Counted from the first letter of the stretch, positions 9,278 to 51,492 are shown. The stretch is 64,000 bases of DNA from an uncultured Bacilli bacterium (GCA_947623925.1 CANQID010000001.1:4047-68046); one strand, 5' to 3'. Program-made: numbers and translations. Notes: generated from the sequence alone by a model not told the origin.

Positions 9278-9314
9278 TTTGAAATATGTTTAATTGAAAA
9301 TAGGAGGTGAATAT

Positions 9315-10172
9315 ATGTTTAATAAAATATTAGAAGTTCAAAATATAAAAGTTAATGTTACAAAACTAAATGATAATGATTATATTTGTATTTCTGATTT
9401 TGGTAAATATAAAGAAGGAAAATCAAAATCTGATGATATCATACGCAATTGGTTAAGAAATCGGATAACTTTAGAGTTTTTAGGTACTTGGGAATCAATT
9501 TATAATCCAAATTTTAATTCCGTCGAATTCGACGGGTTTAGAAAAAATGCTGGTCTTCATACTTTTACACTTAGTGTAACTGAATGGTGTGAAAAAACTA
9601 ATGCTATTGGTATTTATTCTAAGCGTGGAAAATATGGTGGAACTTACGCACACAAAGATATTGCTTTTGAATTTGCATCTGCTATAAGTCCAGTATTTAA
9701 ATTATATTTAATAAAAGAATTTGAAAGATTAAAAGAAATAGAAAATCAAAATAGAGAATGGGATGTAAAAAGAATACTTACAAAGAATAATTATTTAATT
9801 CATACGGATGCTATAAAAAGATATATATTACCAGATAATGATTATTTTAAAAATAGAGAATGGCTAAAATATGCTGAAGAAGCTGATATTTTAAATGTTG
9901 TATTATTTCATACGACAGCAAAAGCATGGAGAGAACTTAATCCTAATTTAGCAAAAAACTCTAATATTAGAGACTATGCTTCCATTAATGAATTAACAGT
10001 ATTATCAAATCTTGAGTCACATAATGCAGAATTAATTAAAGAAGGGAAAAGTAAAGAAGAAAGATTTGATATATTAAGTGTTATTGCGAAATATCAATTA
10101 AATATACTTAATGATGCTGAAGAAATCAAATTATTAAAAGAAAGTAAAAATTGTGGTGATAAAAATGAATGA
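9315..10172 (+). CDS. KilA-N domain protein
   Basis: N-terminal region matches the KilA-N fold signature (...ICISDFGKY..., RNWLRNRITLEFLGTWE, GGTYAHKDIAFEFASAISPVFKLY). Start at ATG 9315 after RBS AGGAGG. The ORF-track start 9294 is a TTG upstream of the RBS. Confidence 0.65.
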   Translation: MFNKILEVQNIKVNVTKLNDNDYICISDFGKYKEGKSKSDDIIRNWLRNRITLEFLGTWESIYNPNFNSVEFDGFRKNAGLHTFTLSVTEWCEKTNAIGIYSKRGKYGGTYAHKDIAFEFASAISPVFKLYLIKEFERLKEIENQNREWDVKRILTKNNYLIHTDAIKRYILPDNDYFKNREWLKYAEEADILNVVLFHTTAKAWRELNPNLAKNSNIRDYASINELTVLSNLESHNAELIKEGKSKEERFDILSVIAKYQLNILNDAEEIKLLKESKNCGDKNE

Positions 10173-26204: not shown

Positions 26205-27116
26205 ATGAGAAATTTTAAATTCAATGCAAAACTTATTAGTATAATTATCGCTGGAATAATATTAGTAGGTGGTTGTTCTAATAAAAGTACATCAACTATA
26301 GATAATTCAAAAAGTAATGAAGATTATTCATTAGATTCTGCAATATCAGATGAAAAAACTATAATTCCAAATTCAAGTGATGAAGTAATTGATAATTCAA
26401 AAGATACAACACAAAAAAATACTTCAAGTAGTACAACATCAAATGATAATTCTTTAGAAAATAATTCAAGTAGTACTACATCAAAGAACAATTCTTTAGA
26501 AAATAATAAAGAACAATCTACAACCATACCTAATAAAGAAATTCAAAACCCTGTAGTAGAAGATACAAATATATCAAGTACTTCAAATTCTTATGTAGAA
26601 GAAACAAACGAAAATGATAATATTGTATTACAAGAATTTAGAAATTTAAAAGCGGATGTTAAAAAAATAACGGAAAGTGATACAGTTACAAATTTTAAAG
26701 AAGATTGCAAAAATGTATTTATTACAATAGTAGATTTTATATTTTATGATGGTGAAATAAAAGGTATAACATTTGATGAATTAAGCGATGCAGCAAAACA
26801 AGAATTATTAAAAGAAGCATCAGAAATTGATAGTTTAATAGTTAAAAAATTTCCAAATTATAAAGAAGAAATAAGTTCATTTGCAACCTCTGCATATAAT
26901 AAAGCATCTAATTTAATAAAGACAGGTGCAAATAATATAAAAGATTTTGCTAAAGACAAATTAGGGGAAGATAACTATAATAAGATTAAACAAGTTAAAG
27001 ATGATTTGAAACAAAGCGCTTCAACTGTTTGGGAAGATTTAAAAGATGATGTAGGAAATGTCTATGATAAAGCAAAAGAAAAAATAAAAAATTGGTATGA
27101 GAATTTTAAAAATTAG
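26205..27116 (+). CDS. lipoprotein with Ser/Thr/Asn-rich linker
   Basis: Signal peptide with lipobox LVGGC. S/T/N-rich linker containing a 42-nt tandem repeat (SSSTTS.NNSLENN x2). Folded C-terminal domain of unknown function. Confidence 0.6.
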   Translation: MRNFKFNAKLISIIIAGIILVGGCSNKSTSTIDNSKSNEDYSLDSAISDEKTIIPNSSDEVIDNSKDTTQKNTSSSTTSNDNSLENNSSSTTSKNNSLENNKEQSTTIPNKEIQNPVVEDTNISSTSNSYVEETNENDNIVLQEFRNLKADVKKITESDTVTNFKEDCKNVFITIVDFIFYDGEIKGITFDELSDAAKQELLKEASEIDSLIVKKFPNYKEEISSFATSAYNKASNLIKTGANNIKDFAKDKLGEDNYNKIKQVKDDLKQSASTVWEDLKDDVGNVYDKAKEKIKNWYENFKN

Positions 27117-28798: not shown

Positions 28799-28938
28799 AG
28801 CAATAGTCTCTTTTTTTTTTAATTATTATAAATTTACTTTACATATTATTAATATTGATATGTATTTTTATTAATATTAATATGTACTTTTTTGTCGAAT
28901 TTTGGTATAATTATAACAAAGTATAGGAAGTGGTATAA

Positions 28939-31077
28939 TTGAATAAATTCAAAAAAATAATTTCAATAATTTTTTGTTTAACTCTTTTATTAAATATAGT
29001 ACCTGTTTATGCTGCAAGTAATAAACAAATAGTAGTAACTACTAGTTTATTAAGATTTAGAAGTGCTGCAACTACAAATTCTACAATTTATTCTTCACTT
29101 ACATATGGAGATATACTTACAGTTTTAGATGAACAAACTGTAAATAATAGTGGATGTAGTAGTAATAAATGGTATAAAGTTAGTTATTCTAATAAAGTTG
29201 GATATGTTTGCTCTTCATATACAAGTGTAATAGATGAAAAAGACAAAAATTTATCTGCATATATAGTAGAAGAAAAAACATTAAGAAAGGGGCCATCTAC
29301 AAGTTCTAGCGCTATAACTGATATGAAATCAGGTTCTAGCATAACTATTTTAGGACAAAGTGGTAGTTGGTATTATGTAAAATATAATAATCAAACTGGA
29401 TGGATTAATGAAAATAGGGTTACTATAGTTCCTAATGAAGATACTGATGCAAATTTTAAAAATACAGTATTATCAAAATTTCCAAGCAGTTATCACCCTT
29501 ATTTAATTAAAATGCATAATGATCATCCAAATTGGGTATTTGAACCATTTGAAACTAATGTGGATTTTAAAACTGCAGTTGAAAAAGAATCAGCAATTGG
29601 TGTTAGTTTAACAAATAGTACTTCACAAGGCTTTTATTCAACAGCAGGTGGAGCATATGATTATAAAACTGATACTTTTTATTTGAAAGAGGGAAGTAGC
29701 TGGTATGCAGCAAACTCAGAAGCAATAGCTTATTATATGGACCCTAGAAATTATTTAAATGAAATAAGTATATTTGCATTTGAAAAATTATCTTATGATC
29801 CAAACTTACATACAGTTGAGACTGTAAAATCGACTTTAGCAAATTTTCCTACTTTATCTACTTATGCTGATGATTTTATAACTGCTGCCCAAGAAACTAA
29901 AGTTAGTCCAATTCATTTAGCGACAAGATCAATTCAAGAAATAGGAAATTCTACAACTGCGATTTCAGGCACAACCGTATTTAATTGTAATGGTGTTAAA
30001 TATAATGGCGGATATTATAATTTTTATAATATAGGAGCATATACATCAAGTAATCCTGTTGAACTTGGGTTATGTTATGCTGTAAATAAAGGATGGAATA
30101 CACCAGCTAAAGCAATAGCAGGTGGTGCTTCTACAATATCTAATGGGTATGTAAATGCAGGTCAAGATACAGGTTATTTACAAAAATATAATGTTAAAAA
30201 TGGAACAGTTACTACAAGTCATCAATTTATGACAAATATAGCTGCGCCTATAAGTGAATCAACAATTACATATAATGGTCATGTTAAAGCTAAAACTTTA
30301 GATGGAAATTTTGTATTTAAAATTCCAATTTATAAAGAAGGTACATTGCCAGAAAATTTATCTGTTTTACCATCAGGAGGAAATCCTAATAATTATTTAA
30401 AAACTGTTCTTGTTAATGGAAATATATTAGATACATTCAACTTAGATAAGACAACTTATACTGTAAATTTACCATCTAATGCAACTAGTGTAACAATATC
30501 AGGATTGCCTGTAAGTTCTAAATCAACAGTAACGGGAGGGGGAACTATTGATTTAACTAAAACTAAACAAGCAACACTTACTGTTAAAGCACAAAATAAA
30601 ACAACTAGGACATACACATTTAATTTTGCTTTAGTAAATCCTACTTCTAGTAAAGTTGAAGACATAGTAAATAGTATTGGTGTAAAAAATGATGGAACTT
30701 ACATATATGGTATAAATAATAAAGAAACAACAGATATAATAGAGGAAATTAAGAGTAAAAATGCAAGTGCAACAATTCAATTTAAAAACAGTAAGGGACA
30801 GGTAAAATCAAATACATCTTTTGCAACAGGAGATACTGTGACTGTTACTATTGGAACTAGTTCAAAAACATATAAATTAGTAGTTCTTGGTGATACAAGT
30901 GGAGATGGAAAAATAGATATATTAGATTTATTAAAAATACAAAAAAATATATTAGAATCTAGTAAATTGTCTAATGAATATTTAAGAGCGGCTAATGTAA
31001 ATTCAGATGGAAAAGTAGATATATTGGACTTACTTAAAGTTCAAAAGCATATACTAGGACATGGAAATATTGAATAA
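28939..31077 (+). CDS. secreted multidomain cell-wall hydrolase: 2x SH3b, GH73-like glucosaminidase domain, cadherin-like beta-sandwich, Ig-like domains, C-terminal dockerin (TTG start)
   Basis: Signal peptide (IVPVYAAS). Two SH3_3-like repeats (SSLTYGDILTV..., NKWYKVSYSNKVGYV / WYYVKYNNQTGWI). Central region with GH73-like motifs (SPIHLATRSIQEIG..., NFYNIGAY). CLBD-like segment. C-terminal dockerin pair DTSGDGKIDILDLLKIQKNIL / NVNSDGKVDILDLLKVQKHIL. Confidence 0.7.
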   Translation: MNKFKKIISIIFCLTLLLNIVPVYAASNKQIVVTTSLLRFRSAATTNSTIYSSLTYGDILTVLDEQTVNNSGCSSNKWYKVSYSNKVGYVCSSYTSVIDEKDKNLSAYIVEEKTLRKGPSTSSSAITDMKSGSSITILGQSGSWYYVKYNNQTGWINENRVTIVPNEDTDANFKNTVLSKFPSSYHPYLIKMHNDHPNWVFEPFETNVDFKTAVEKESAIGVSLTNSTSQGFYSTAGGAYDYKTDTFYLKEGSSWYAANSEAIAYYMDPRNYLNEISIFAFEKLSYDPNLHTVETVKSTLANFPTLSTYADDFITAAQETKVSPIHLATRSIQEIGNSTTAISGTTVFNCNGVKYNGGYYNFYNIGAYTSSNPVELGLCYAVNKGWNTPAKAIAGGASTISNGYVNAGQDTGYLQKYNVKNGTVTTSHQFMTNIAAPISESTITYNGHVKAKTLDGNFVFKIPIYKEGTLPENLSVLPSGGNPNNYLKTVLVNGNILDTFNLDKTTYTVNLPSNATSVTISGLPVSSKSTVTGGGTIDLTKTKQATLTVKAQNKTTRTYTFNFALVNPTSSKVEDIVNSIGVKNDGTYIYGINNKETTDIIEEIKSKNASATIQFKNSKGQVKSNTSFATGDTVTVTIGTSSKTYKLVVLGDTSGDGKIDILDLLKIQKNILESSKLSNEYLRAANVNSDGKVDILDLLKVQKHILGHGNIE

Positions 31078-31087
31078 GGAGATAAAT

Positions 31088-32569
31088 ATGAAAAAGAGTA
31101 AATTTACATTATTTATGGTTATTGCTTTTACTTCTTTATTGTTCAATGTTAAGGCATTGGCGGCAACAAGCATAGGTATAAGTGCATCATCTTCTGTAAC
31201 TGTAGGTAACACTGTAACTGCAACTGTTACAATTTCATCAAATTCGACATTGGGAACATGGGATTTTGTAATAGGATACGATACTTCGAAACTAACTCTT
31301 CTAGATGATGCAAATCAAAGAATAGCTGATTTTGGTGATGGAAAAATTAAAAGTAGGTCATATACATTTAGATTTATGACTAAAGCAACTGGAAGTGCTA
31401 AAATATATGTTGATAGTGCTTCATATTATAGTTATTGGGATGAAAAGTTAGAAAATGTTTCAAAAGGTTCAAAAACTATAACAATAAATCCTAAAAAAGT
31501 TAGTAACCCAACGACATATAGTTCAAATAATTATTTATCTAGTTTAGGTATTGATGGATATGAATTAACTCCTGCTTTTAATAAAAACACATTAGAATAT
31601 TCTGTTAAATTACCAAAAGAAACTTACAATATAAAATTGAATGGAAAAACAGAAGATAGTAAAGCAAAAATAGATGGAATTGGAGATATCACTCTTGTAG
31701 ACGGAGAAAATAAACTAGAAGTAAAAGTAACTGCTGAAAATGGTAATATTAGAACTTATGTAATTAAAGCTACAGTAGAAGAACCAAATCCAATAAAAGT
31801 AAATATTGATGAAAAAGAATATACTGTTGTAAGAAAAAAAGATGGATTAACTATTCCTTCTAATTATAAAGAAACAACTATTGATATACAAGGAGAATCA
31901 GTTTTAGCTTTTAATGGTGAAATAACTAAATATAATCTAGTAGCGTTAAAAGATAATGAAGGTAATATAGGATTATATATATATAATTCTACTAATGAAA
32001 CATATGAGTTATATAAAGAATTAAAATTCAATTCAATAAATATTTATCCATATCTAATAAGTGATGACAAAATATTAGATGGATATAAAAAGGGTAAAAT
32101 GACCATAAATAATAATGAAGTAGAAGTATTACAAAATAAAAGTGGTTATCCTATAATTTATGGAATGAATTTATCAACTGGGGAAGTATCATATTATACT
32201 TATGATGCTAAAGATAACACTCTTCAAAGATATAATGAAGAGGAAGTATTAAAAAATAATAAAGAAAATAAAGATAAACTTTATATAATATATGGTTTAG
32301 CAGCATTTTCAATATTAGAATTATTTATAATAATTATAATACTTGCAGTAAAAAATAAAAAAACTAATAAAAAATTAGAAGAAACATTAGAAAAAACAAT
32401 GAAATTTGCTCCTATTGATGAAGACAATATAGAAGAAAAAAGCAAAAAGGAAATAAAAAAAGAAGAAAAACAAAAATTGAAAGAAGAAAAATTAAAGAAA
32501 AAAGAAGAAAAGAAAAAATTAAAAGAAAAAAATAAAGATGATGATTATGAAGATATGGATGAATTTTAA
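31088..32569 (+). CDS. membrane-anchored cohesin-domain protein with cadherin-like beta-sandwich domain and K/E-rich cytoplasmic tail
   Basis: Signal peptide. Cohesin-like N-domain (ATSIGISASSSVTVGNTVTATVTISSNSTLGTWDFVIGYDTSKLTL). CLBD (YLSSLGIDGYELTPAFNKNTLEYSVKLP). C-terminal TM helix (LYIIYGLAAFSILELFIIIIILAV) and a charged tail. It overlaps the end of the upstream dockerin gene. Confidence 0.65.
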   Translation: MKKSKFTLFMVIAFTSLLFNVKALAATSIGISASSSVTVGNTVTATVTISSNSTLGTWDFVIGYDTSKLTLLDDANQRIADFGDGKIKSRSYTFRFMTKATGSAKIYVDSASYYSYWDEKLENVSKGSKTITINPKKVSNPTTYSSNNYLSSLGIDGYELTPAFNKNTLEYSVKLPKETYNIKLNGKTEDSKAKIDGIGDITLVDGENKLEVKVTAENGNIRTYVIKATVEEPNPIKVNIDEKEYTVVRKKDGLTIPSNYKETTIDIQGESVLAFNGEITKYNLVALKDNEGNIGLYIYNSTNETYELYKELKFNSINIYPYLISDDKILDGYKKGKMTINNNEVEVLQNKSGYPIIYGMNLSTGEVSYYTYDAKDNTLQRYNEEEVLKNNKENKDKLYIIYGLAAFSILELFIIIIILAVKNKKTNKKLEETLEKTMKFAPIDEDNIEEKSKKEIKKEEKQKLKEEKLKKKEEKKKLKEKNKDDDYEDMDEF

Positions 32570-32583
32570 TCCATATCTTTTTG
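32552..32583 (+). terminator. rho-independent terminator overlapping the stop codon of the cohesin gene
   Basis: GATATGGAT gaattttaa TCCATATC followed by TTTTT. Confidence 0.6.
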
Positions 32584-32665: not shown

Positions 32666-33796
32666 ATGGGTATTTTTGATATGTTTGTTAATGATAAAAA
32701 GAAAACTGAAGAGATTGTATCAGAGGAAGTTCAAAAATATGTAACTGCTTCTGTTAGAAATATAGATTCAGAATTGATTCCAATTAAAAATAAATTAAAT
32801 ACATATAGAGGTATAATTGTATTTCCTGAAGCATTATCTTATTATCCTATAGATAGACCACAAAATATATTAAGAACATTTGCTAAAAAAGGATTTTTGT
32901 GTTTCTTTTGTACCGATGACGAAAAAGTAGGACTAAAAGAAGTTGAACCAAATTTATTCGTAATTAGTAGGCAAGAAAGGCTACTTCCTTTATTAAAAGG
33001 TCAAAAAGTTTTATTTTTAATAACTTATTTTTTACAATATATATTTGCTAAAATGGTTGAAAATAGAGTTATTTGGATAGATATAATGGGTAATATAGAA
33101 AAATATAAACATTACAATAATTATTCAATAGGAATATATAAAGAAATAATGAATGAAGCTTTAATTGCTACATATAGTAAAGAACAGTATAAAAAATATT
33201 ATGATGGTGTAAGAGAAAATGTAATGTTATTAAAAGATGGAATAATGGTAGAAGATTTTATAAATAGCAAAAATATAATAGGTGAAGATATTAGAAAGTA
33301 CCTATTTATGAATAAAAAAGTAATTGGATATTATGGTGATATAGATAATAATATTGACTTTGATTTGATAAAAAAAATAGATTCATTAAATTCATATGTA
33401 ATAGTATTAATAGGTAAATTAGATGATACAATTTCACTTAAAGATTATTCTCTTCATAACACATATGTAATACCAAGTAAAAATTATTCTGAACTTAAAA
33501 ATTATGTAACACATTTTGATGTAGTTTTTTTCCCACTAAAATCTGATATTATGAATGATTTATATACTAAAACACTACAGTGTAGTGCAATGAATAAAAA
33601 AATAATAACATATCCATATGCTGAATTATCACAACTTATGTTACCAAATATAATGTTTGTTAAAAATGCAGATGATTTTATAAAAAATTTAGATTTGTTT
33701 ACTGAAACGAATGATTATGAATTGTCTAAAAAAATATCTGAAGTGTTAATTAAATACAGTTGGGAAAATGTAATAAATAAAGTGTTGGTATTATAA
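32666..33796 (+). CDS. hypothetical protein (possible degenerate GT-B/Rossmann-like glycan-associated protein)
   Basis: 376-aa product with no clear motif. Alternating beta-alpha character in the C-terminal half. Sits directly upstream of tagO/wecA. Confidence 0.4.
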   Translation: MGIFDMFVNDKKKTEEIVSEEVQKYVTASVRNIDSELIPIKNKLNTYRGIIVFPEALSYYPIDRPQNILRTFAKKGFLCFFCTDDEKVGLKEVEPNLFVISRQERLLPLLKGQKVLFLITYFLQYIFAKMVENRVIWIDIMGNIEKYKHYNNYSIGIYKEIMNEALIATYSKEQYKKYYDGVRENVMLLKDGIMVEDFINSKNIIGEDIRKYLFMNKKVIGYYGDIDNNIDFDLIKKIDSLNSYVIVLIGKLDDTISLKDYSLHNTYVIPSKNYSELKNYVTHFDVVFFPLKSDIMNDLYTKTLQCSAMNKKIITYPYAELSQLMLPNIMFVKNADDFIKNLDLFTETNDYELSKKISEVLIKYSWENVINKVLVL

Positions 33797-43881: not shown

Positions 43882-44961
43882 TTGAGTATGTTAAATTTTA
43901 CAGTAGGACCGGTACAGTCTAGTGATAATGTAAGAAAAATTGGTGGTGAACAAGTACCATATTTTAGAACAGAAGAGTTCTCAAATATCATGTTAGAAAA
44001 CGAAAGATTAATTAAAAAATTTTCCAATTCTGGTGAAAATTCTAGAGTAGTATTTATAACAGGCTCTGGTACTGCTTCTATGGAAGCATCTGTTATAAAT
44101 ACTCTTACGAGAGAAGATAAATTATTAATAGTAAATGGTGGTAGTTTTGGACAAAGATTTGCAGAAATTTGTAATATACATGAACTTAATTATACTGAAA
44201 TAAAACTTGAAAGTGGTTGCAAATTAAAATCAAGTGATTTAGAACCATATGATAATAAAGGATATACTGCATTTATTGTTAATGTAGATGAAACATCTAC
44301 AGGAGTATATTATGATTTGAATTTAATTCATGAATTTTGTAAAAAAAATAATTTATTTTTAATAGTAGATGCAATAAGTTCATTTTTAGCAGATGAACTT
44401 GATATGCAAAAATATGAAATAGATGTTATGATCACAGGTTCTCAAAAAGCACTTGCTTGTCCACCTGGAATTTCAGTAATAGTACTTAGAGAAAATGCTT
44501 TAAAAAGAGTCCAAAATACTAATCCTAAATGTATGTATTTGGATTTAAAAAATGCACTATTAAATGGAGAAAGAGGTCAAACTCCTTTTACACCTGCTGT
44601 TGGAATTTTACTTCAAATAAATGAAAGACTAAAAGAAATAGAAAAAAATGGTGGAGTAGAATCTGAAATAAGAAAAATATCATCTATTGCGAATGACTTT
44701 AGAAATAGAATAAAAGATTTGCCTTTAAAAATAACATCAGAATCTTTATCAAATGCTGTAACACCATTATCTCCTTTAAATGTTTCAGCATATGATGTCT
44801 TTCTTACATTAAAAGATAAATATGACATATGGGTTTGTCCAAATGGGGGAGATTTAAAAGAAAAAATCTTTAGAGTTGGTCATATTGGAGATTTAACAAT
44901 TGAAGATAATGATAAATTGATATTAGCTTTAAAAGATATGGCAGATAAGCATTTATTATAA
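43882..44961 (+). CDS. class V aminotransferase, putative 2-aminoethylphosphonate:pyruvate aminotransferase (PhnW/AEP transaminase-like)
   Basis: AGT/class-V PLP fold (FTVGP, ITGSGTASMEA, PLP-lysine context ITGSQKALACPPG). First gene of an operon that also encodes PEP mutase and phosphonopyruvate decarboxylase. The start may be TTG 43882 or ATG 43888. Confidence 0.65.
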   Translation: MSMLNFTVGPVQSSDNVRKIGGEQVPYFRTEEFSNIMLENERLIKKFSNSGENSRVVFITGSGTASMEASVINTLTREDKLLIVNGGSFGQRFAEICNIHELNYTEIKLESGCKLKSSDLEPYDNKGYTAFIVNVDETSTGVYYDLNLIHEFCKKNNLFLIVDAISSFLADELDMQKYEIDVMITGSQKALACPPGISVIVLRENALKRVQNTNPKCMYLDLKNALLNGERGQTPFTPAVGILLQINERLKEIEKNGGVESEIRKISSIANDFRNRIKDLPLKITSESLSNAVTPLSPLNVSAYDVFLTLKDKYDIWVCPNGGDLKEKIFRVGHIGDLTIEDNDKLILALKDMADKHLL

Positions 44962-46343: not shown

Positions 46344-47231
46344 ATGACTGAGGTAAAAGAATTAACAAAAGAAGAATTCAGAAAAATGCAATTAATGCAG
46401 TTAGATATGATTAAAGAACTTGATAGGGTGTGTAGAAAACATAACATTAAATATACAATATTTGCGGGCACATTACTTGGAGCAGTAAGACATAAAGGAT
46501 ATATACCATGGGATGATGATGCTGATATTGCCATGTTAAGAGAAGAATATGAAAAGTTTAAATTAGTTGCAGATGAATTAGATTCAAGTATATGTTATTT
46601 TCAAGACCATACTACTGATCCTAATTACAGATGGGGGTATGCAAAATTAAGACGAACTAATACTGAATATATTAGGGTTGGTCAAGAACACTTAAAATGT
46701 AAAACTGGATTTTTTATAGATATTTTTCCAATGGATGATATTCCAAAATCTACAATTGGTCAAGTTTTTAATGATTTTTATTGCTTTTGCTTGAGAAAAA
46801 TATTATATTCTGAGGTTGGCAAAGTTTCAAAAAGTGAAAGTAAATTATCAAGAAAATGGTATTCATTATTGTCAAAAATTCCAACTAATAAAGTATGGAA
46901 AAGATTAGATAAAATGACAAAAAAAAGTAATAATTCTAGTGAAAATAGAGTTAGAATATATCTTTTCCCTTCACTTGGAAAATCAAATAAAAAAAATTCA
47001 TTAAAGACAAAGTATGGAATGCCAAAGGAATGGTTTTTAAATTTTAACGAATATGATTTTGAAGAAAATAAATTTTATGGTACAGCTGATTATGATTCTT
47101 GTTTAAAATATCTTTATGATGACTATATGAAGTTACCACCTGAAGATAAAAGAGAGCAACACTCACCAACTTCTTCATATAGTTTTGATACGACAATTAG
47201 AAATAAAATTCGAGAGGATGATAATAAATGA
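46344..47231 (+). CDS. licD: LicD-family phosphotransferase (CDP/CMP-activated phospho-head-group transferase, fukutin/LicD superfamily)
   Basis: MQLMQLDMIKELDRVCRKHNIKYTIFAGTLLGAVRHKGYIPWDDDADIAM (LicD DxD core) and a conserved downstream D.F.D segment (GFFIDIFPMDD). Confidence 0.8.
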   Translation: MTEVKELTKEEFRKMQLMQLDMIKELDRVCRKHNIKYTIFAGTLLGAVRHKGYIPWDDDADIAMLREEYEKFKLVADELDSSICYFQDHTTDPNYRWGYAKLRRTNTEYIRVGQEHLKCKTGFFIDIFPMDDIPKSTIGQVFNDFYCFCLRKILYSEVGKVSKSESKLSRKWYSLLSKIPTNKVWKRLDKMTKKSNNSSENRVRIYLFPSLGKSNKKNSLKTKYGMPKEWFLNFNEYDFEENKFYGTADYDSCLKYLYDDYMKLPPEDKREQHSPTSSYSFDTTIRNKIREDDNK

Positions 47232-48535
47232 ATAAAAAAGTATATATAGCTATGTCCGCTGATTTTATTCATGATGGTCATATTAATGTAATAGAAGAAG
47301 GCTCAAGATATGGAGATGTAATTATTGGACTTTTAACAGATGAAGCAATAGCAACTTATAAAAGGATGCCATTACTAAATTATGATACTAGAAAGCGCAT
47401 TTTTGAGAACATGAAACATGTTAAAGAAGTAGTAAAGCAAGAAACTTTGGATTATACAAATAATTTAAAAAAAATAAAACCTGATTATGTAATTCATGGA
47501 GACGATTGGAAAAAAGGAATACAAAGTGTTATTAGACAAAAGGTTATTGATACTTTAAAAGAATGGAATGGAAAACTTATAGAAATTCCTTATACTATAG
47601 GTAACAATTGCACAGATTTAGAACATGAATATAGAATGCTAACAAATACACCTGATAATAGAAGAAGTAAACTAAAAAAATTATTAAATTTAAAACCTTA
47701 TATAAGTGTAATGGAAGCATCTAATGGATTAACAGGGTTGATTGTTGAAAATGCAAGAGTTGAAAACGAAAAGACAGGTTATTTAAAAGAATTTGATGCT
47801 ATGTGGGTAAGTAGTTTATGTGATTCTACATTTAAGGGAAAACCTGATATTGAATTAGTTGATTTAACTAGTAGAATAAATACAATTAATGAAATAATGG
47901 AAGTTACTACGAAACCTATAATTTTAGATGGTGATACAGGTGGAAAGGTAGAACACTTTGTTTATAATGTAAAAACACTAGAAAGATTGGGCGTTTCAGC
48001 AATAATAATAGAGGATAAAACTGGTTTAAAGAAAAACTCACTTTTTGGTACAGAAGTAGAACAGACACTTGATGATCCAGATAATTTTGCTAATAAAATT
48101 AGAGCAGGTAAGCAGGCTTTAGTAACTCGTGATTTTTTGATATTTGCTCGTCTAGAAAGTTTAATTGCAGGTAAAGGTATTGATGATGCATTATTTCGTG
48201 CTAAAAAATATTTAGAAGCAGGTGCTGATGGAATAATGATTCATAGCAAAGAAAAAGATGGCTCTGAAATTAAAGAATTTTTGAAAATATTTAGGAAAAA
48301 TTATCCAAATGTTCCAGTAATTGTTGTTCCAACTTCATATAATCAGTTTACTGAAAGTGAATTACATGAGTGGGGAGCAAATATAATAATTCATGCTAAT
48401 CATTTACTTAGAAGTGCATATCCAGCTATGATGAAAACAGCAAAATCAATTTTAGAAAATGGAAGAAGTAAAGAAGCAGATGAATACTGTATGCCTATTA
48501 AAGAAATTTTAACATTAATTCCAGGAGGTAAATAA
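47228..48535 (+). CDS. ppm: fusion: HxGH-type cytidylyltransferase domain + phosphoenolpyruvate phosphomutase (Ppm)
   Basis: N-terminal ~130 aa match the cytidylyltransferase-like family (IAMSADFIHDGHINVI). C-terminal ~290 aa are PEP mutase/ICL superfamily (VMEASNGLTGLIVENA, ILDGDTGGKVEHF, IIEDKTGLKKNSLFG, ARLES). Confidence 0.85.
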   Translation: MNKKVYIAMSADFIHDGHINVIEEGSRYGDVIIGLLTDEAIATYKRMPLLNYDTRKRIFENMKHVKEVVKQETLDYTNNLKKIKPDYVIHGDDWKKGIQSVIRQKVIDTLKEWNGKLIEIPYTIGNNCTDLEHEYRMLTNTPDNRRSKLKKLLNLKPYISVMEASNGLTGLIVENARVENEKTGYLKEFDAMWVSSLCDSTFKGKPDIELVDLTSRINTINEIMEVTTKPIILDGDTGGKVEHFVYNVKTLERLGVSAIIIEDKTGLKKNSLFGTEVEQTLDDPDNFANKIRAGKQALVTRDFLIFARLESLIAGKGIDDALFRAKKYLEAGADGIMIHSKEKDGSEIKEFLKIFRKNYPNVPVIVVPTSYNQFTESELHEWGANIIIHANHLLRSAYPAMMKTAKSILENGRSKEADEYCMPIKEILTLIPGGK

Positions 48536-49645
48536 ATGGTTGATACTGAAAAATTTTATGATTATTTGATTACTAAAAATTTAGATTTTTTTGCAGGGGT
48601 ACCGGATTCTTTATTAAAGAATCTGTGTTCTTGTATTAAAGAAAAATCTGATAAAACGCATAATATTATAACATCAAATGAAGGTAATGCAGTAGCTCTA
48701 GCGTCAGGTTATCATATTTCATCAGGTAAGTATGGTGTTGTATATATGCAAAATTCTGGAATTGGAAATGCGGTTAATCCTTTACTATCTTTAGCTGATG
48801 AAGAGGTTTATAGTATTCCAATGTTATTAATAGTTGGATGGCGTGGAGAGCCTGGCATTAAAGACGAACCTCAACATATTAAACAAGGTAAAGTTACAAT
48901 CGAATTATTTGAAACAATGGGAATAGAGTGTGTTATATTAGATGAAAATTATCAAGAAAAAATAGATTATTGCTATAAATATATAAGCAGTAATAATAAA
49001 CCTATTGCTTTAATTGTAAAAAAAGGTTTATTTACTGAATATAAATCTTCTAAACCAATTAATAATTATTTAATAACTAGAGAAGAAGCTTTAGAAACAA
49101 TTGTAGATTGTTTAAATGAAAATGATTTTATTGTTTCTACAACAGGAAAAACTTCAAGAGAACTTTTTGAAATAAGAGAAAAAAGGAAAGAAAAACATAG
49201 TAATGATTTTTTAACTGTTGGTTCTATGGGACATACTTCTTCTATAGCTCTAGGAATGAGTATTGGCAGTGAAAATAATATATATTGCATTGATGGTGAT
49301 GGTTCATTTATTATGCATATGGGTTCATTTGCAATAATACCTACAGTTGCAAAACAAAATTTTAAGTATATTTTAATAAATAATGGTGCACATGAATCTG
49401 TTGGGGGACAACCTACTGTTGCATTCAATATAGATATTCAAAAAATGTTATTATCATTAGGATTTAAAAATGTATATATTGCAAAAACAAATGAAGAAAT
49501 AAAAAAGTATATGAATAATTTAAAAAATGGTGAATTACAAGCATTAGTAATTTATACTAAATTAGGTTCTAGAGATAATCTTGGAAGACCTACAATTAGT
49601 CCTATAGAAAATAAAAAAGCAATGATGGAAAAATTTAGAAATTAG
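48536..49645 (+). CDS. ppd: phosphonopyruvate decarboxylase (ThDP-dependent)
   Basis: N-terminal FFAGVPDSLLKN, ThDP-binding GDGS...NNG region (IDGDGSFIMHMGS...INNGAHESVGG). Immediately follows ppm. Confidence 0.85.
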   Translation: MVDTEKFYDYLITKNLDFFAGVPDSLLKNLCSCIKEKSDKTHNIITSNEGNAVALASGYHISSGKYGVVYMQNSGIGNAVNPLLSLADEEVYSIPMLLIVGWRGEPGIKDEPQHIKQGKVTIELFETMGIECVILDENYQEKIDYCYKYISSNNKPIALIVKKGLFTEYKSSKPINNYLITREEALETIVDCLNENDFIVSTTGKTSRELFEIREKRKEKHSNDFLTVGSMGHTSSIALGMSIGSENNIYCIDGDGSFIMHMGSFAIIPTVAKQNFKYILINNGAHESVGGQPTVAFNIDIQKMLLSLGFKNVYIAKTNEEIKKYMNNLKNGELQALVIYTKLGSRDNLGRPTISPIENKKAMMEKFRN

Positions 49646-50397: not shown

Positions 50398-51492
50398 ATG
50401 AATAATCAACAATTTATTTATAGTTATGATGAAATATCTAATATAATTGATTTAGAACAAAATAATAATATCTTTATTGTATGTGATAAATTTTTAATGG
50501 ATTCATTTATTATAAATTATTTAAAAAAAATAAGTAGAAATATTTTTATATTTACTGAATTTAATCCAAATCCAAAATATGAAGATGTATTATTAGGAAT
50601 TGATTTATTCAAAAAAAATAATTGTAACTTTATAATATCTATAGGTGGTGGTAGTGCTATAGATGTTGCGAAATGTATAAAGGCTTTTGTTACATTAAAT
50701 GATAAAAAAAATTATTTGGAACAGGAAATTATTAAAAATGATATAAATCATTTAGCAATTCCTACAACTGCTGGGACAGGCAGTGAATCTACTCATTTTG
50801 CTGTAATTTATTATGAAGAAAATAAATATTCAGTAGATGATAGTACCTTACTTCCAACTTATGTATTATTGGAATCTAAATTTTTAGAAAGTTTACCAAT
50901 ATATCAAAAAAAATCAACGATGTTAGATGCACTTTGTCAAGGAATAGAATCACTTTGGAGCGTCAATTCAACAGAAGAAAGTAAGGAATATGCTATTAAG
51001 GCTATTCAATTAATTTTAAATAATTATAGAGATTATATTAATGAAAATAAAAGTGTTTATAATGATATTATGTTAGCAGCGAATTACAGTGGGAGAGCTA
51101 TAAATATAAGTAAAACAACTGCACCTCATGCAATGAGTTATAAAATAACATCTTTATATGGAATTAGTCATGGACATGCTGTTGCATTATGTTTACCATA
51201 TGTATGGGAATATATGATTAATAATATAGATAAGATAATTGATAAAAGGGGAGTAAAATATTTAAAAGATATTTTTAATAGACTAGATATATTATTTAAT
51301 TGTGATTCACATATTGAATCAATAAATAAATTTAAGAATATTTGTAGTGAAATAAATTTAAATATTAAAGGTATAGTAAAAAGGAAAGATTTACAACTTT
51401 TGGTTTCTTCAGTGAATATACAAAGATTAAGCAATAATCCAGTTAGTTTAAATAAAGAAGAAATAAAAAAAATATATGAAAAACTTGCTTAG
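50398..51492 (+). CDS. iron-containing (group III) alcohol dehydrogenase, candidate phosphonoacetaldehyde reductase
   Basis: Fe-ADH motifs IISIGGGSAIDVAKCI and IPTTAGTGSEST. It is the last gene of the ppm-ppd operon. Confidence 0.7.
   Translation: MNNQQFIYSYDEISNIIDLEQNNNIFIVCDKFLMDSFIINYLKKISRNIFIFTEFNPNPKYEDVLLGIDLFKKNNCNFIISIGGGSAIDVAKCIKAFVTLNDKKNYLEQEIIKNDINHLAIPTTAGTGSESTHFAVIYYEENKYSVDDSTLLPTYVLLESKFLESLPIYQKKSTMLDALCQGIESLWSVNSTEESKEYAIKAIQLILNNYRDYINENKSVYNDIMLAANYSGRAINISKTTAPHAMSYKITSLYGISHGHAVALCLPYVWEYMINNIDKIIDKRGVKYLKDIFNRLDILFNCDSHIESINKFKNICSEINLNIKGIVKRKDLQLLVSSVNIQRLSNNPVSLNKEEIKKIYEKLA

Follow-up and report, generated by a model that had tools for sequence, protein, structure and literature searches.

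Cohesin-dockerin pairs are textbook parts of cellulosomes, and to our knowledge the few non-cellulosomal uses of such pairs all concern enzymes that digest external glycans. Autolysins are otherwise put in place through wall-binding repeats, transmembrane (TM) anchors, or partners such as SpdC, ActH, and FtsEX. Here we evaluate two neighboring genes on the + strand of a 64,000-nucleotide stretch of DNA from an uncultured Bacilli bacterium (GCA_947623925.1, CANQID010000001.1:4047-68046), which we refer to as the window. Gene 1 (28939-31077) encodes a 712-aa secreted protein with the architecture SH3b-SH3b-GH73-cadherin-like-X-dockerin, and gene 2 (31088-32569) encodes a 493-aa type-I membrane protein composed of cohesin-like, cadherin-like, and beta-rich domains, a TM helix, and a charged tail. 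An earlier reading of the DNA by itself (the sequence-only reading) had placed two open reading frames (ORFs) here, both of which are present on the + strand, and had proposed that they form a self-contained two-component system. In our assessment the pair is probably a dedicated two-gene module in which a dockerin-cohesin leash holds a GH73 hydrolase at the membrane of the producing cell for work on its own wall.

The cellulosomal pairs of Clostridium thermocellum (CipA/Xyn10B, 1OHZ/2CCL) and Clostridium acetobutylicum (CaCohA2-Doc0917, 6KGC) likewise combine a duplicated, internally symmetric dockerin at the C-terminus of a secreted glycoside hydrolase with a beta-sandwich cohesin on a cell-bound protein. 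Cellulosomes, however, are multi-enzyme scaffolds that act on plant polysaccharide, whereas the present pair has one cohesin, one enzyme, and peptidoglycan as its predicted substrate; in place of a multi-cohesin scaffoldin serving several dockerin enzymes, we found one cohesin per anchor and one dockerin ORF per genome neighborhood. Classical anchoring scaffoldins carry S-layer homology repeats or sortase motifs. The anchor described here has a C-terminal TM helix, and its cohesin-like domain, at ~110 aa and with a divergent second half, is also unlike the cellulosomal ones.

Cohesin-dockerin systems outside cellulose degradation include the Ruminococcus bromii amylosome (PMC4611034), the enzyme complexes called mucinolysomes (PMC12997984), and the NagJ/NagH-type cohesins of Clostridium perfringens, of which 2o4e/2ozn were among the Protein Data Bank (PDB) matches of our family profiles. 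As in the present pair, they serve secreted glycoside hydrolases, but they bring several enzymes to host or dietary glycans, and for none of them has membrane tethering of a peptidoglycan hydrolase been described. A passing remark in one of these sources credits R. bicirculans with a single cohesin and a single dockerin linked to GH73 (PMC4611034). That organism is likewise a non-cellulolytic gut Firmicute with one dockerin, one cohesin, and a GH73 link; it belongs to the Clostridia, and the remark is one of genome annotation, whereas the present pair occurs in uncultured Bacilli and in genomes labeled "Mollicutes". In our literature search, no study turned up in which a peptidoglycan hydrolase is tethered through cohesin and dockerin, and this remark was the only precedent, so the statement in the sequence-only reading that such autolysin localization is essentially unexplored comes close to the truth but overlooks R. 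bicirculans.

The SagB-SpdC complex of Staphylococcus aureus offers a different comparison. There, too, a GH73 enzyme is held at the membrane by a partner membrane protein, the catalytic Glu is the same, and SagB is the closest solved relative of the gene 1 enzyme. SagB, however, has its own TM anchor and docks, adjacent to the membrane, onto an eight-TM CAAX-like protein, whereas the gene 1 enzyme is secreted and its partner is a single-pass protein that presents the binding module on the end of a long stalk. Judged by equivalog score, a TM-anchored enzyme, and an eight-TM CAAX-like partner, the present pair falls outside the SagB-SpdC group; the catalytic family and the use of a membrane partner are all that the two have in common. 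The paper on that complex predicts further membrane-anchored hydrolase complexes (bioRxiv 10.1101/2020.05.21.109470).

Conservation and covariation of the gene pair

When a single genome was scanned for each species, 408 relatives of gene 2 were found, mostly from metagenome-assembled genomes (MAGs) labeled Bacilli, Mollicutes/Tenericutes, "Clostridium sp. CAG:524", or Candidatus Onthocola, a clade for which we know of no cultured model. Eighty loci with 34-61% identity were retained, and in all 80 the GH73-dockerin gene lay directly upstream of the anchor gene on the same strand. We added 84 further loci, 80 from a metagenome scan that used a 35-sequence alignment and was anchored on a divergent member of the family, and four from exact-protein look-ups. 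Upstream sequence was usable for 79 of the 84 (75 of these 79 being metagenomic) and the same arrangement was found in 78, which brings the overall adjacency to 158 of 159 informative loci. Measured at 79 loci, the gap between the stop codon of the hydrolase gene and the ATG of the anchor gene had a median of 11 nt and fell within 8-17 nt at 75 of them. Family-level hidden Markov models (HMMs) detected one dockerin ORF and one cohesin ORF per neighborhood, both in the 64-kb window and in the 80 genome neighborhoods.

The sole informative locus without an upstream GH73-dockerin gene (L089:2193-3771) has an anchor ORF that is broken within the N-terminal domain (N-domain), and long minus-strand ORFs (386 and 476 aa) run across the break or border it. 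An insertion or a chimeric assembly may lie behind this; we read the locus as a disrupted or chimeric contig and do not count it as a counter-example.

Covariation was evaluated with 150 dockerin/cohesin pairs (effective number of sequences 84.5) as mutual information with average product correction (APC-MI) over all inter-protein column pairs, which were grouped by the dockerin and GH73 domains of gene 1 and the cohesin-like, cadherin-like, and C-terminal domains of gene 2. The dockerin x cohesin block makes up 5.9% of the 140,194 inter-protein column pairs, yet it supplied 16 of the 20 highest scores (1.2 expected), 29 of the top 50 (2.9 expected), and 42 of the top 100 (5.9 expected). The five control blocks, among them GH73 x cohesin, dockerin x cadherin-like, and dockerin x C-terminal domain, have an identical phylogenetic background and comparable column entropies, and all were at or below expectation. 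The strongest pairs joined dockerin position 11 of both repeats (L662 and L696) to cohesin Y114, which ends a long strand (aa 102-114) in the AlphaFold2 (AF2) model, and further top pairs joined position 15 (K666 and K700) to cohesin E119. In type-I dockerins, positions 10 and 11 are the classical recognition positions. A smaller run with 78 pairs had placed the top dockerin-cohesin pairs barely above control noise (0.32 vs. 0.30).

The two dockerin repeats evolve in concert. They are 72% identical within a protein vs. 55% across orthologues, and position 10 holds the same residue in the two repeats of 70 out of 81 proteins, where 24.8 would be expected. Symmetry of this kind is characteristic of dockerins able to bind in either of two orientations. 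We read the covariation as co-evolution of dockerin and cohesin; because the counts are phylogenetically non-independent, it argues for a specific interface rather than proving one. The near-constant adjacency, the one-to-one count of the two modules, and the restriction of covariation enrichment to a single block strongly favor the two-component idea of the sequence-only reading.

Two loci of one metagenomic lineage (L099:1375-2955 and L160:1378-2970) depart from the family pattern. Their GH73 domain looks circularly permuted, with the C-terminal lobe (…HQYMGN…FTIPIYENM) preceding the N-terminal one (FPESY…QELG…YNFYNIGAY). They also carry a dockerin variant of their own (VINSADLLKMRQHLIG), and the LGSW and YD-x-SKL motifs have been lost from the N-domain of the partner.

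The secreted hydrolase, its membrane anchor, and the proposed leash

The gene 1 product, for which an identical 712-aa protein exists in a public collection (P0121), starts with what by sequence inspection appears to be a cleavable Sec-type signal peptide (aa 1-25, ...VYA|AS; 28939-29013). Its hydrophobic windows begin at aa 3-10, and no further hydrophobic segment occurs in the protein. Two SH3b domains follow (aa ~30-95 and 113-160; 29026-29418), matched by Pfam SH3_3 in two stretches (E 4.5e-24) and by the PDB SH3b structures 2kt8, 2krs, 2kyb, and 2kq8. The next domain (aa ~172-469; 29452-30345) is assigned to the GH73-type endo-beta-N-acetylglucosaminidases on the basis of PDB matches: residues 242-469 align with the GH73 structures of SagB (6u0o/6fxp, E ~4e-22), the Atl glucosaminidase (6fxo, 8e-19), and AtlE (4pi7, 1e-10), and 5wqw was also matched (2.6e-9). 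The NCBIfam SagB model matches as well (E 8.9e-27), but at 94 bits vs. an equivalog cut-off of 425, which rules out gene 1 as a SagB equivalog. The predicted catalytic residue, Glu334 of the SIQEIG motif (codon 29938-29940), aligns with SagB E155, which is needed for SagB activity (bioRxiv 10.1101/2020.05.21.109470). This column holds Glu in 79 of 80 orthologue sequences and a gap in the remaining one. The gene 1 product is thus best described as a predicted GH73 glucosaminidase of the SagB/Atl type.

Behind the hydrolase domain lies a cadherin-like beta-sandwich module (aa ~484-572; 30388-30654) that is homologous to the one in gene 2. The gene 1 copy is sub-threshold in Pfam (E 0.33), but the two modules match each other in phmmer searches (2e-5 and 6e-7), and the orthologue of gene 1 at locus L085 carries PF12733. 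It is followed by a ~70-aa X module (30661-30873) that is conserved in some orthologues and has no family match. A search with the X module plus dockerin for other enzymes bearing the same dockerin type returned only 18 short fragments.

Type-I dockerins consist of two ~22-residue segments, each with an EF-hand-like loop (D or N at positions 1, 3, 5, and 12) followed by a helix. The C-terminal region of gene 1 (aa 650-706; 30886-31056) has this form, with two 22-residue calcium-loop/helix repeats (GDTSGDGKIDILDLLKIQKNIL and ANVNSDGKVDILDLLKVQKHIL). It scored 44.9 bits with Dockerin_1 (PF00404; gathering score 22.9) over all 57 of 57 profile positions, the dockerin of the L083 orthologue reached 49.2 bits, and the PDB dockerins 2ccl_B, 1ohz_B, and 2vn5_B were matched. 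The loop residues are D652, S654, D656, and D663 in repeat 1 and N686, N688, D690, and D697 in repeat 2, and the corresponding columns are 92-100% D/N/S over 78 orthologues.

Gene 2 has a signal peptide at its N-terminus, followed by the cohesin-like N-domain discussed in the next section. Its cadherin-like beta-sandwich domain (aa 151-229; 31538-31774) matches PF12733 at 31.6 bits (vs. 24.2), and PF12733 was also matched in 35 of 35 gene 2 homologues. A membrane-proximal, beta-hairpin-rich domain of ~150 aa (aa ~237-381; 31796-32230) was modeled by AF2 with a predicted local distance difference test (pLDDT) score of 87.6; Foldseek found no PDB relative for it (best E 0.085, TM-score <= 0.23). 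In most cases this domain is better conserved than the rest of the anchor protein and may therefore be more than a stalk. A single TM helix (aa ~397-425; 32276-32362), predicted from hydropathy and helical in the AF2 model, leads into a highly charged, K/E-rich cytoplasmic tail (32363-32566) that varies in length and sequence among orthologues; its last 51 residues include 18 K/R and 20 D/E. The architecture given in the sequence-only reading, namely an SH3b/GH73-like hydrolase ending in a canonical duplicated type-I dockerin, an anchor with a cadherin-like domain, one TM helix, and a charged tail, and a CLBD (cadherin-like beta-sandwich domain) module common to both proteins, was borne out by these searches.

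We propose the following mechanism. The hydrolase would be exported via Sec, and its SH3b domains would engage peptidoglycan, by analogy with characterized wall hydrolases. Gene 2 would form a single-pass type-I membrane protein with the cohesin at its membrane-distal tip, held off the membrane by the cadherin-like domain and the beta-rich stalk. The dockerin would bind this cohesin, presumably in a Ca2+-dependent manner, and the hydrolase would thereby be leashed non-covalently to the membrane of its producer rather than diffusing off. Such a leash would be several domains long, counting the domains of the anchor and the spacer modules of the enzyme, and the enzyme would therefore work on the wall of the producing cell, where remodeling, trimming of glycan strands, or separation of daughter cells are conceivable tasks. 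What the analysis shows are the domain identities, the catalytic residue, the pairing of the genes, and the co-evolution of dockerin and cohesin; physical binding, its Ca2+ dependence, the own-wall substrate, and the physiological role are what we infer here, and the word autolysin carries an assumption about the substrate, namely that it is the cell's own wall.

This plug and socket appears to be dedicated to one peptidoglycan hydrolase and one TM anchor in at least ~400 species-level gut Bacilli genomes. If the binding is true, it would represent a new means by which Gram-positive-type cells determine the site of autolysin action, and a handle on the cell-wall biology of a poorly known clade of gut Bacilli. 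It would also provide a minimal, naturally orthogonal 1:1 cohesin-dockerin set with a readable specificity code that could be useful in protein engineering. A more far-reaching version, which we put forward only tentatively, is that the pair is a non-covalently assembled, membrane-leashed peptidoglycan-processing machine and a functional counterpart of membrane-anchored hydrolase complexes such as SagB-SpdC. Its interface would then contain a lineage-specific recognition code in which positions 11 and 15 of the two dockerin repeats face Y114 and E119 of the cohesin, and through which, among the crowded gut community, the autolysin of each species stays on the cells that made it. The cohesin-dockerin pair would be a general device for assembling the cell envelope, beyond its use in polysaccharide degradation.

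The same tether could also do another job. In that case GH73 would attack or scavenge foreign peptidoglycan, lysing competitors or harvesting GlcNAc/MurNAc-peptides from gut debris, as a one-enzyme "peptidoglycan-osome" comparable to the amylosomes. Amylosomes and mucinolysomes do break down extracellular polymers (PMC4611034; PMC12997984), a cohesin at the tip of a three-domain stalk combined with the spacers of the enzyme would have a long reach, and the hosts are uncultured low-GC gut Bacilli or MAGs labeled "Mollicutes". We nevertheless consider this unlikely, because the pair is single-copy, universally syntenic, and located beside wall-polymer biosynthesis genes, because SagB, Atl, and AtlE, the closest characterized enzymes, are autolysins, and because no transporter or catabolic genes are linked to the pair in the window.

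The N-terminal domain of gene 2 as a probable cohesin

A leash of this kind depends on the compact beta-sandwich at the N-terminus of gene 2 (aa ~26-134, ~110 aa; 31163-31489), which was delimited with Pfam, PDB profiles, and AF2. PF00963, the Pfam cohesin model, matched 14 of 35 gene 2 homologues at E <= 0.01, and 10 of 10 selected orthologues passed its gathering score with 26-33.8 bits and coverage of up to positions 3-113 of 139. When a profile of the 35 full-length homologues was compared with all PDB sequences, the best 17 matches were cohesins (3l8q, E 3.5e-6), with the non-cellulosomal NagJ cohesin among the matches; a profile of the N-domain only had cohesins as its best 13 matches. 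A phmmer search with the 123-residue window domain against a library of 1.84 billion representative proteins returned 214 relatives, nearly all of them 430-620 aa long with the domain at residues ~25-145. The same search reached P0218 (library-wide E 1.4e-8), a protein with four tandem Pfam cohesins (189 bits), and in BLASTP the window domain aligned with all four at 33-43% identity. A comparison with the validated cohesin CipA Coh7 by hhalign gave E 4.9e-4 at a probability of only 32%.

The cohesin fold is a nine-stranded beta-sandwich (jelly-roll) of ~140 aa. The AF2 model of the N-domain (pLDDT 92.2; predicted template modeling score 0.82) has ten predicted beta-strands, and its top PDB match in Foldseek was the C. 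acetobutylicum cohesin CaCohA2 (6kgc_A, E 1.9e-5, TMq 0.60). From the sequence and model comparisons together, we place the N-domain of gene 2 in the cohesin superfamily, as a compact and divergent member. The sequence-only reading had set beforehand, as what would speak against it, that the region fails cohesin HMMs or fold prediction; with all ten selected orthologues above the gathering score and a cohesin as the top structural match, this was not the outcome. The HMM search that it had proposed gave a split result, with the dockerin well above its gathering score and the cohesin of the window protein below it (20.1 vs. 24.1), while the orthologues passed.

Besides the phylogenetic non-independence of the covariation counts, several observations weigh against the leash as we propose it. 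The window N-domain reached only 18.5-20.1 bits with PF00963 (gathering score 24.1), over profile positions 7-48 of 139. Similarity to classical cohesins lies mostly in its first ~60-110 residues, and the domain spans ~110 aa where classical cohesins span ~140-170 aa. Complement MG, CARDB, and TRAP-beta scored about equally to cohesins in Foldseek (TM-score ~0.6); because other beta-sandwiches score about equally, the fold alone cannot single out a cohesin. In the L099/L160 lineage, the dockerin is retained while the N-domain falls under the family HMM threshold. The count of one dockerin and one cohesin covers the window and the genome neighborhoods rather than whole genomes. On the enzyme side, the Pfam Glucosaminidase family (PF01832) was absent from the gene 1 matches at E <= 1.

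Several of these points would suit a reading in which the operon is conserved but the N-domain is an Ig-like beta-sandwich of a generic kind, one to which the dockerin does not bind. Gene 2 would then be a wall-spanning spacer, a sensor, or a regulator, and the dockerin would serve another partner or act as a Ca2+-stabilized terminal module. The sub-threshold score of the window domain, the inability of Foldseek to separate it from other beta-sandwiches, matches of some orthologues to BatD/DUF11 or chagasin-like models as well, and the absence of the YD-x-SKL motif from the L099 and L160 domains all fit this view. It is harder to reconcile with orthologues that exceed the cohesin gathering score, with the direct match to the four-cohesin protein P0218, with covariation enriched only between the dockerin and the N-domain, and with neighborhoods none of which contains a second cohesin or dockerin, and we consider it quite improbable.

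In a 1262-aa protein (P0235), the N-domain matched 13 separate stretches at 24% identity, and the Pfam matches of this protein look spurious. Either a repetitive cohesin-like array or a low-complexity artefact could account for this.

Locus layout and neighboring genes

Gene 1 begins with a TTG codon preceded by the ribosome-binding site AGGAAGTGG (28926-34, + strand). For gene 2, the sequence-only reading had placed the start 11 nt before the end of gene 1. The longest ORF does begin at 31061, with a 17-nt overlap, but this start is disfavored by the Shine-Dalgarno sequence, the database protein, and the gaps seen in orthologues. The most likely start is ATG 31088, 10 nt past the gene 1 stop codon, because an AAGGAGA Shine-Dalgarno sequence (31076-82, within the start region 31076-31090) overlaps that stop codon and leaves a gap of 5 nt to the ATG, because the database protein P0001 (493 aa) is 100% identical to gene 2 from this codon, and because the 8-17-nt gaps of the family agree with it. 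Genes 1 and 2 are therefore adjacent without overlap.

Upstream of gene 1 we found by eye a promoter-like extended -10 element (TGgTATAAT, 28903-28911). A consensus scan did not rise above shuffled sequence in the AT-rich DNA, and the promoter is therefore only a candidate. A terminator-like hairpin with a U-run (32551-32583) overlaps the gene 2 stop codon. It has a perfect 9-bp stem (AGATATGGA/TCCATATCT) and folds with dG -15.2 kcal/mol (z -5.46), and its end is the end coordinate, 32583, of the sequence-only reading. With the promoter-like site, the Shine-Dalgarno sequence before gene 2, and the hairpin after it, the pair looks like a bicistronic unit of its own.

The window is strongly AT-rich (GC ~0.17-0.34). 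Every one of its 49 ORFs of 150 aa or more is encoded on the + strand, and the GC skew stays positive from end to end, as would fit a leading-strand region near rpoBC. The pair itself lies on this strand downstream of rpoB/rpoC and proS and upstream of a wall-glycopolymer cluster. A WecA/TagO-like GT4 glycosyltransferase occurs within 6 kb of the pair, on either side, in 33 of 80 loci, and directly downstream in the window. Elsewhere (L083 and L085), the pair is flanked by a LytR_cpsA_psr (LCP) ligase, Amidase_3, a CHAP/NlpC-like protein, and a CtpB-like S41 peptidase. This genomic context fits a role in cell-envelope biogenesis. A phage-derived lysis cassette of endolysin and membrane protein, suggested by the match of the GH73 region to PHROG 759 ("tail associated cell-wall hydrolase", E 2.9e-16), is hardly credible and was ruled out, since gene 2 has no PHROG match, both proteins have Sec signal peptides, the pair sits between proS/rpoBC and the wall-glycopolymer cluster with all genes on one strand, and it is vertically conserved in hundreds of species.

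The ~30-kb surface-glycopolymer cluster directly downstream (33819-63209) encodes, in addition to the WecA/TagO-like GT4 enzyme, GT2 and GT1 enzymes, Acyl_transf_3, LicD, an O-antigen-ligase-like protein, a Wzx-like flippase, and WecG/TagA. It also contains a set of phosphonate genes: a phosphoenolpyruvate mutase fused to an N-terminal cytidylyltransferase (47228-48535; TIGR02320, 391.6 bits vs. a cut-off of 319.55), a thiamine pyrophosphate-dependent decarboxylase-like gene (48536-49645), an iron-containing alcohol dehydrogenase (50398-51492), and a class-V aminotransferase (43882-44961). This gene content suggests that the cluster makes a phosphonate-decorated wall polymer.

Three other ORFs in the window deserve mention. 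Right after the pair, a 376-aa ORF (32666-33796) has a homologue only in the closest locus (L001) and no match in Pfam, NCBIfam, or PHROG. A 303-aa protein encoded at 26205-27116, likewise without a family match, opens with a lipoprotein-like sequence (…LVGGCSNK) and contains a long low-complexity stretch, rich in S, T, and N, that includes the near-repeat SSSTTSNDNSLENN / SSSTTSKNNSLENN. Upstream of the rpoBC region, a KilA-N domain protein (9294-10172, E 1.1e-19) is encoded amid housekeeping genes.

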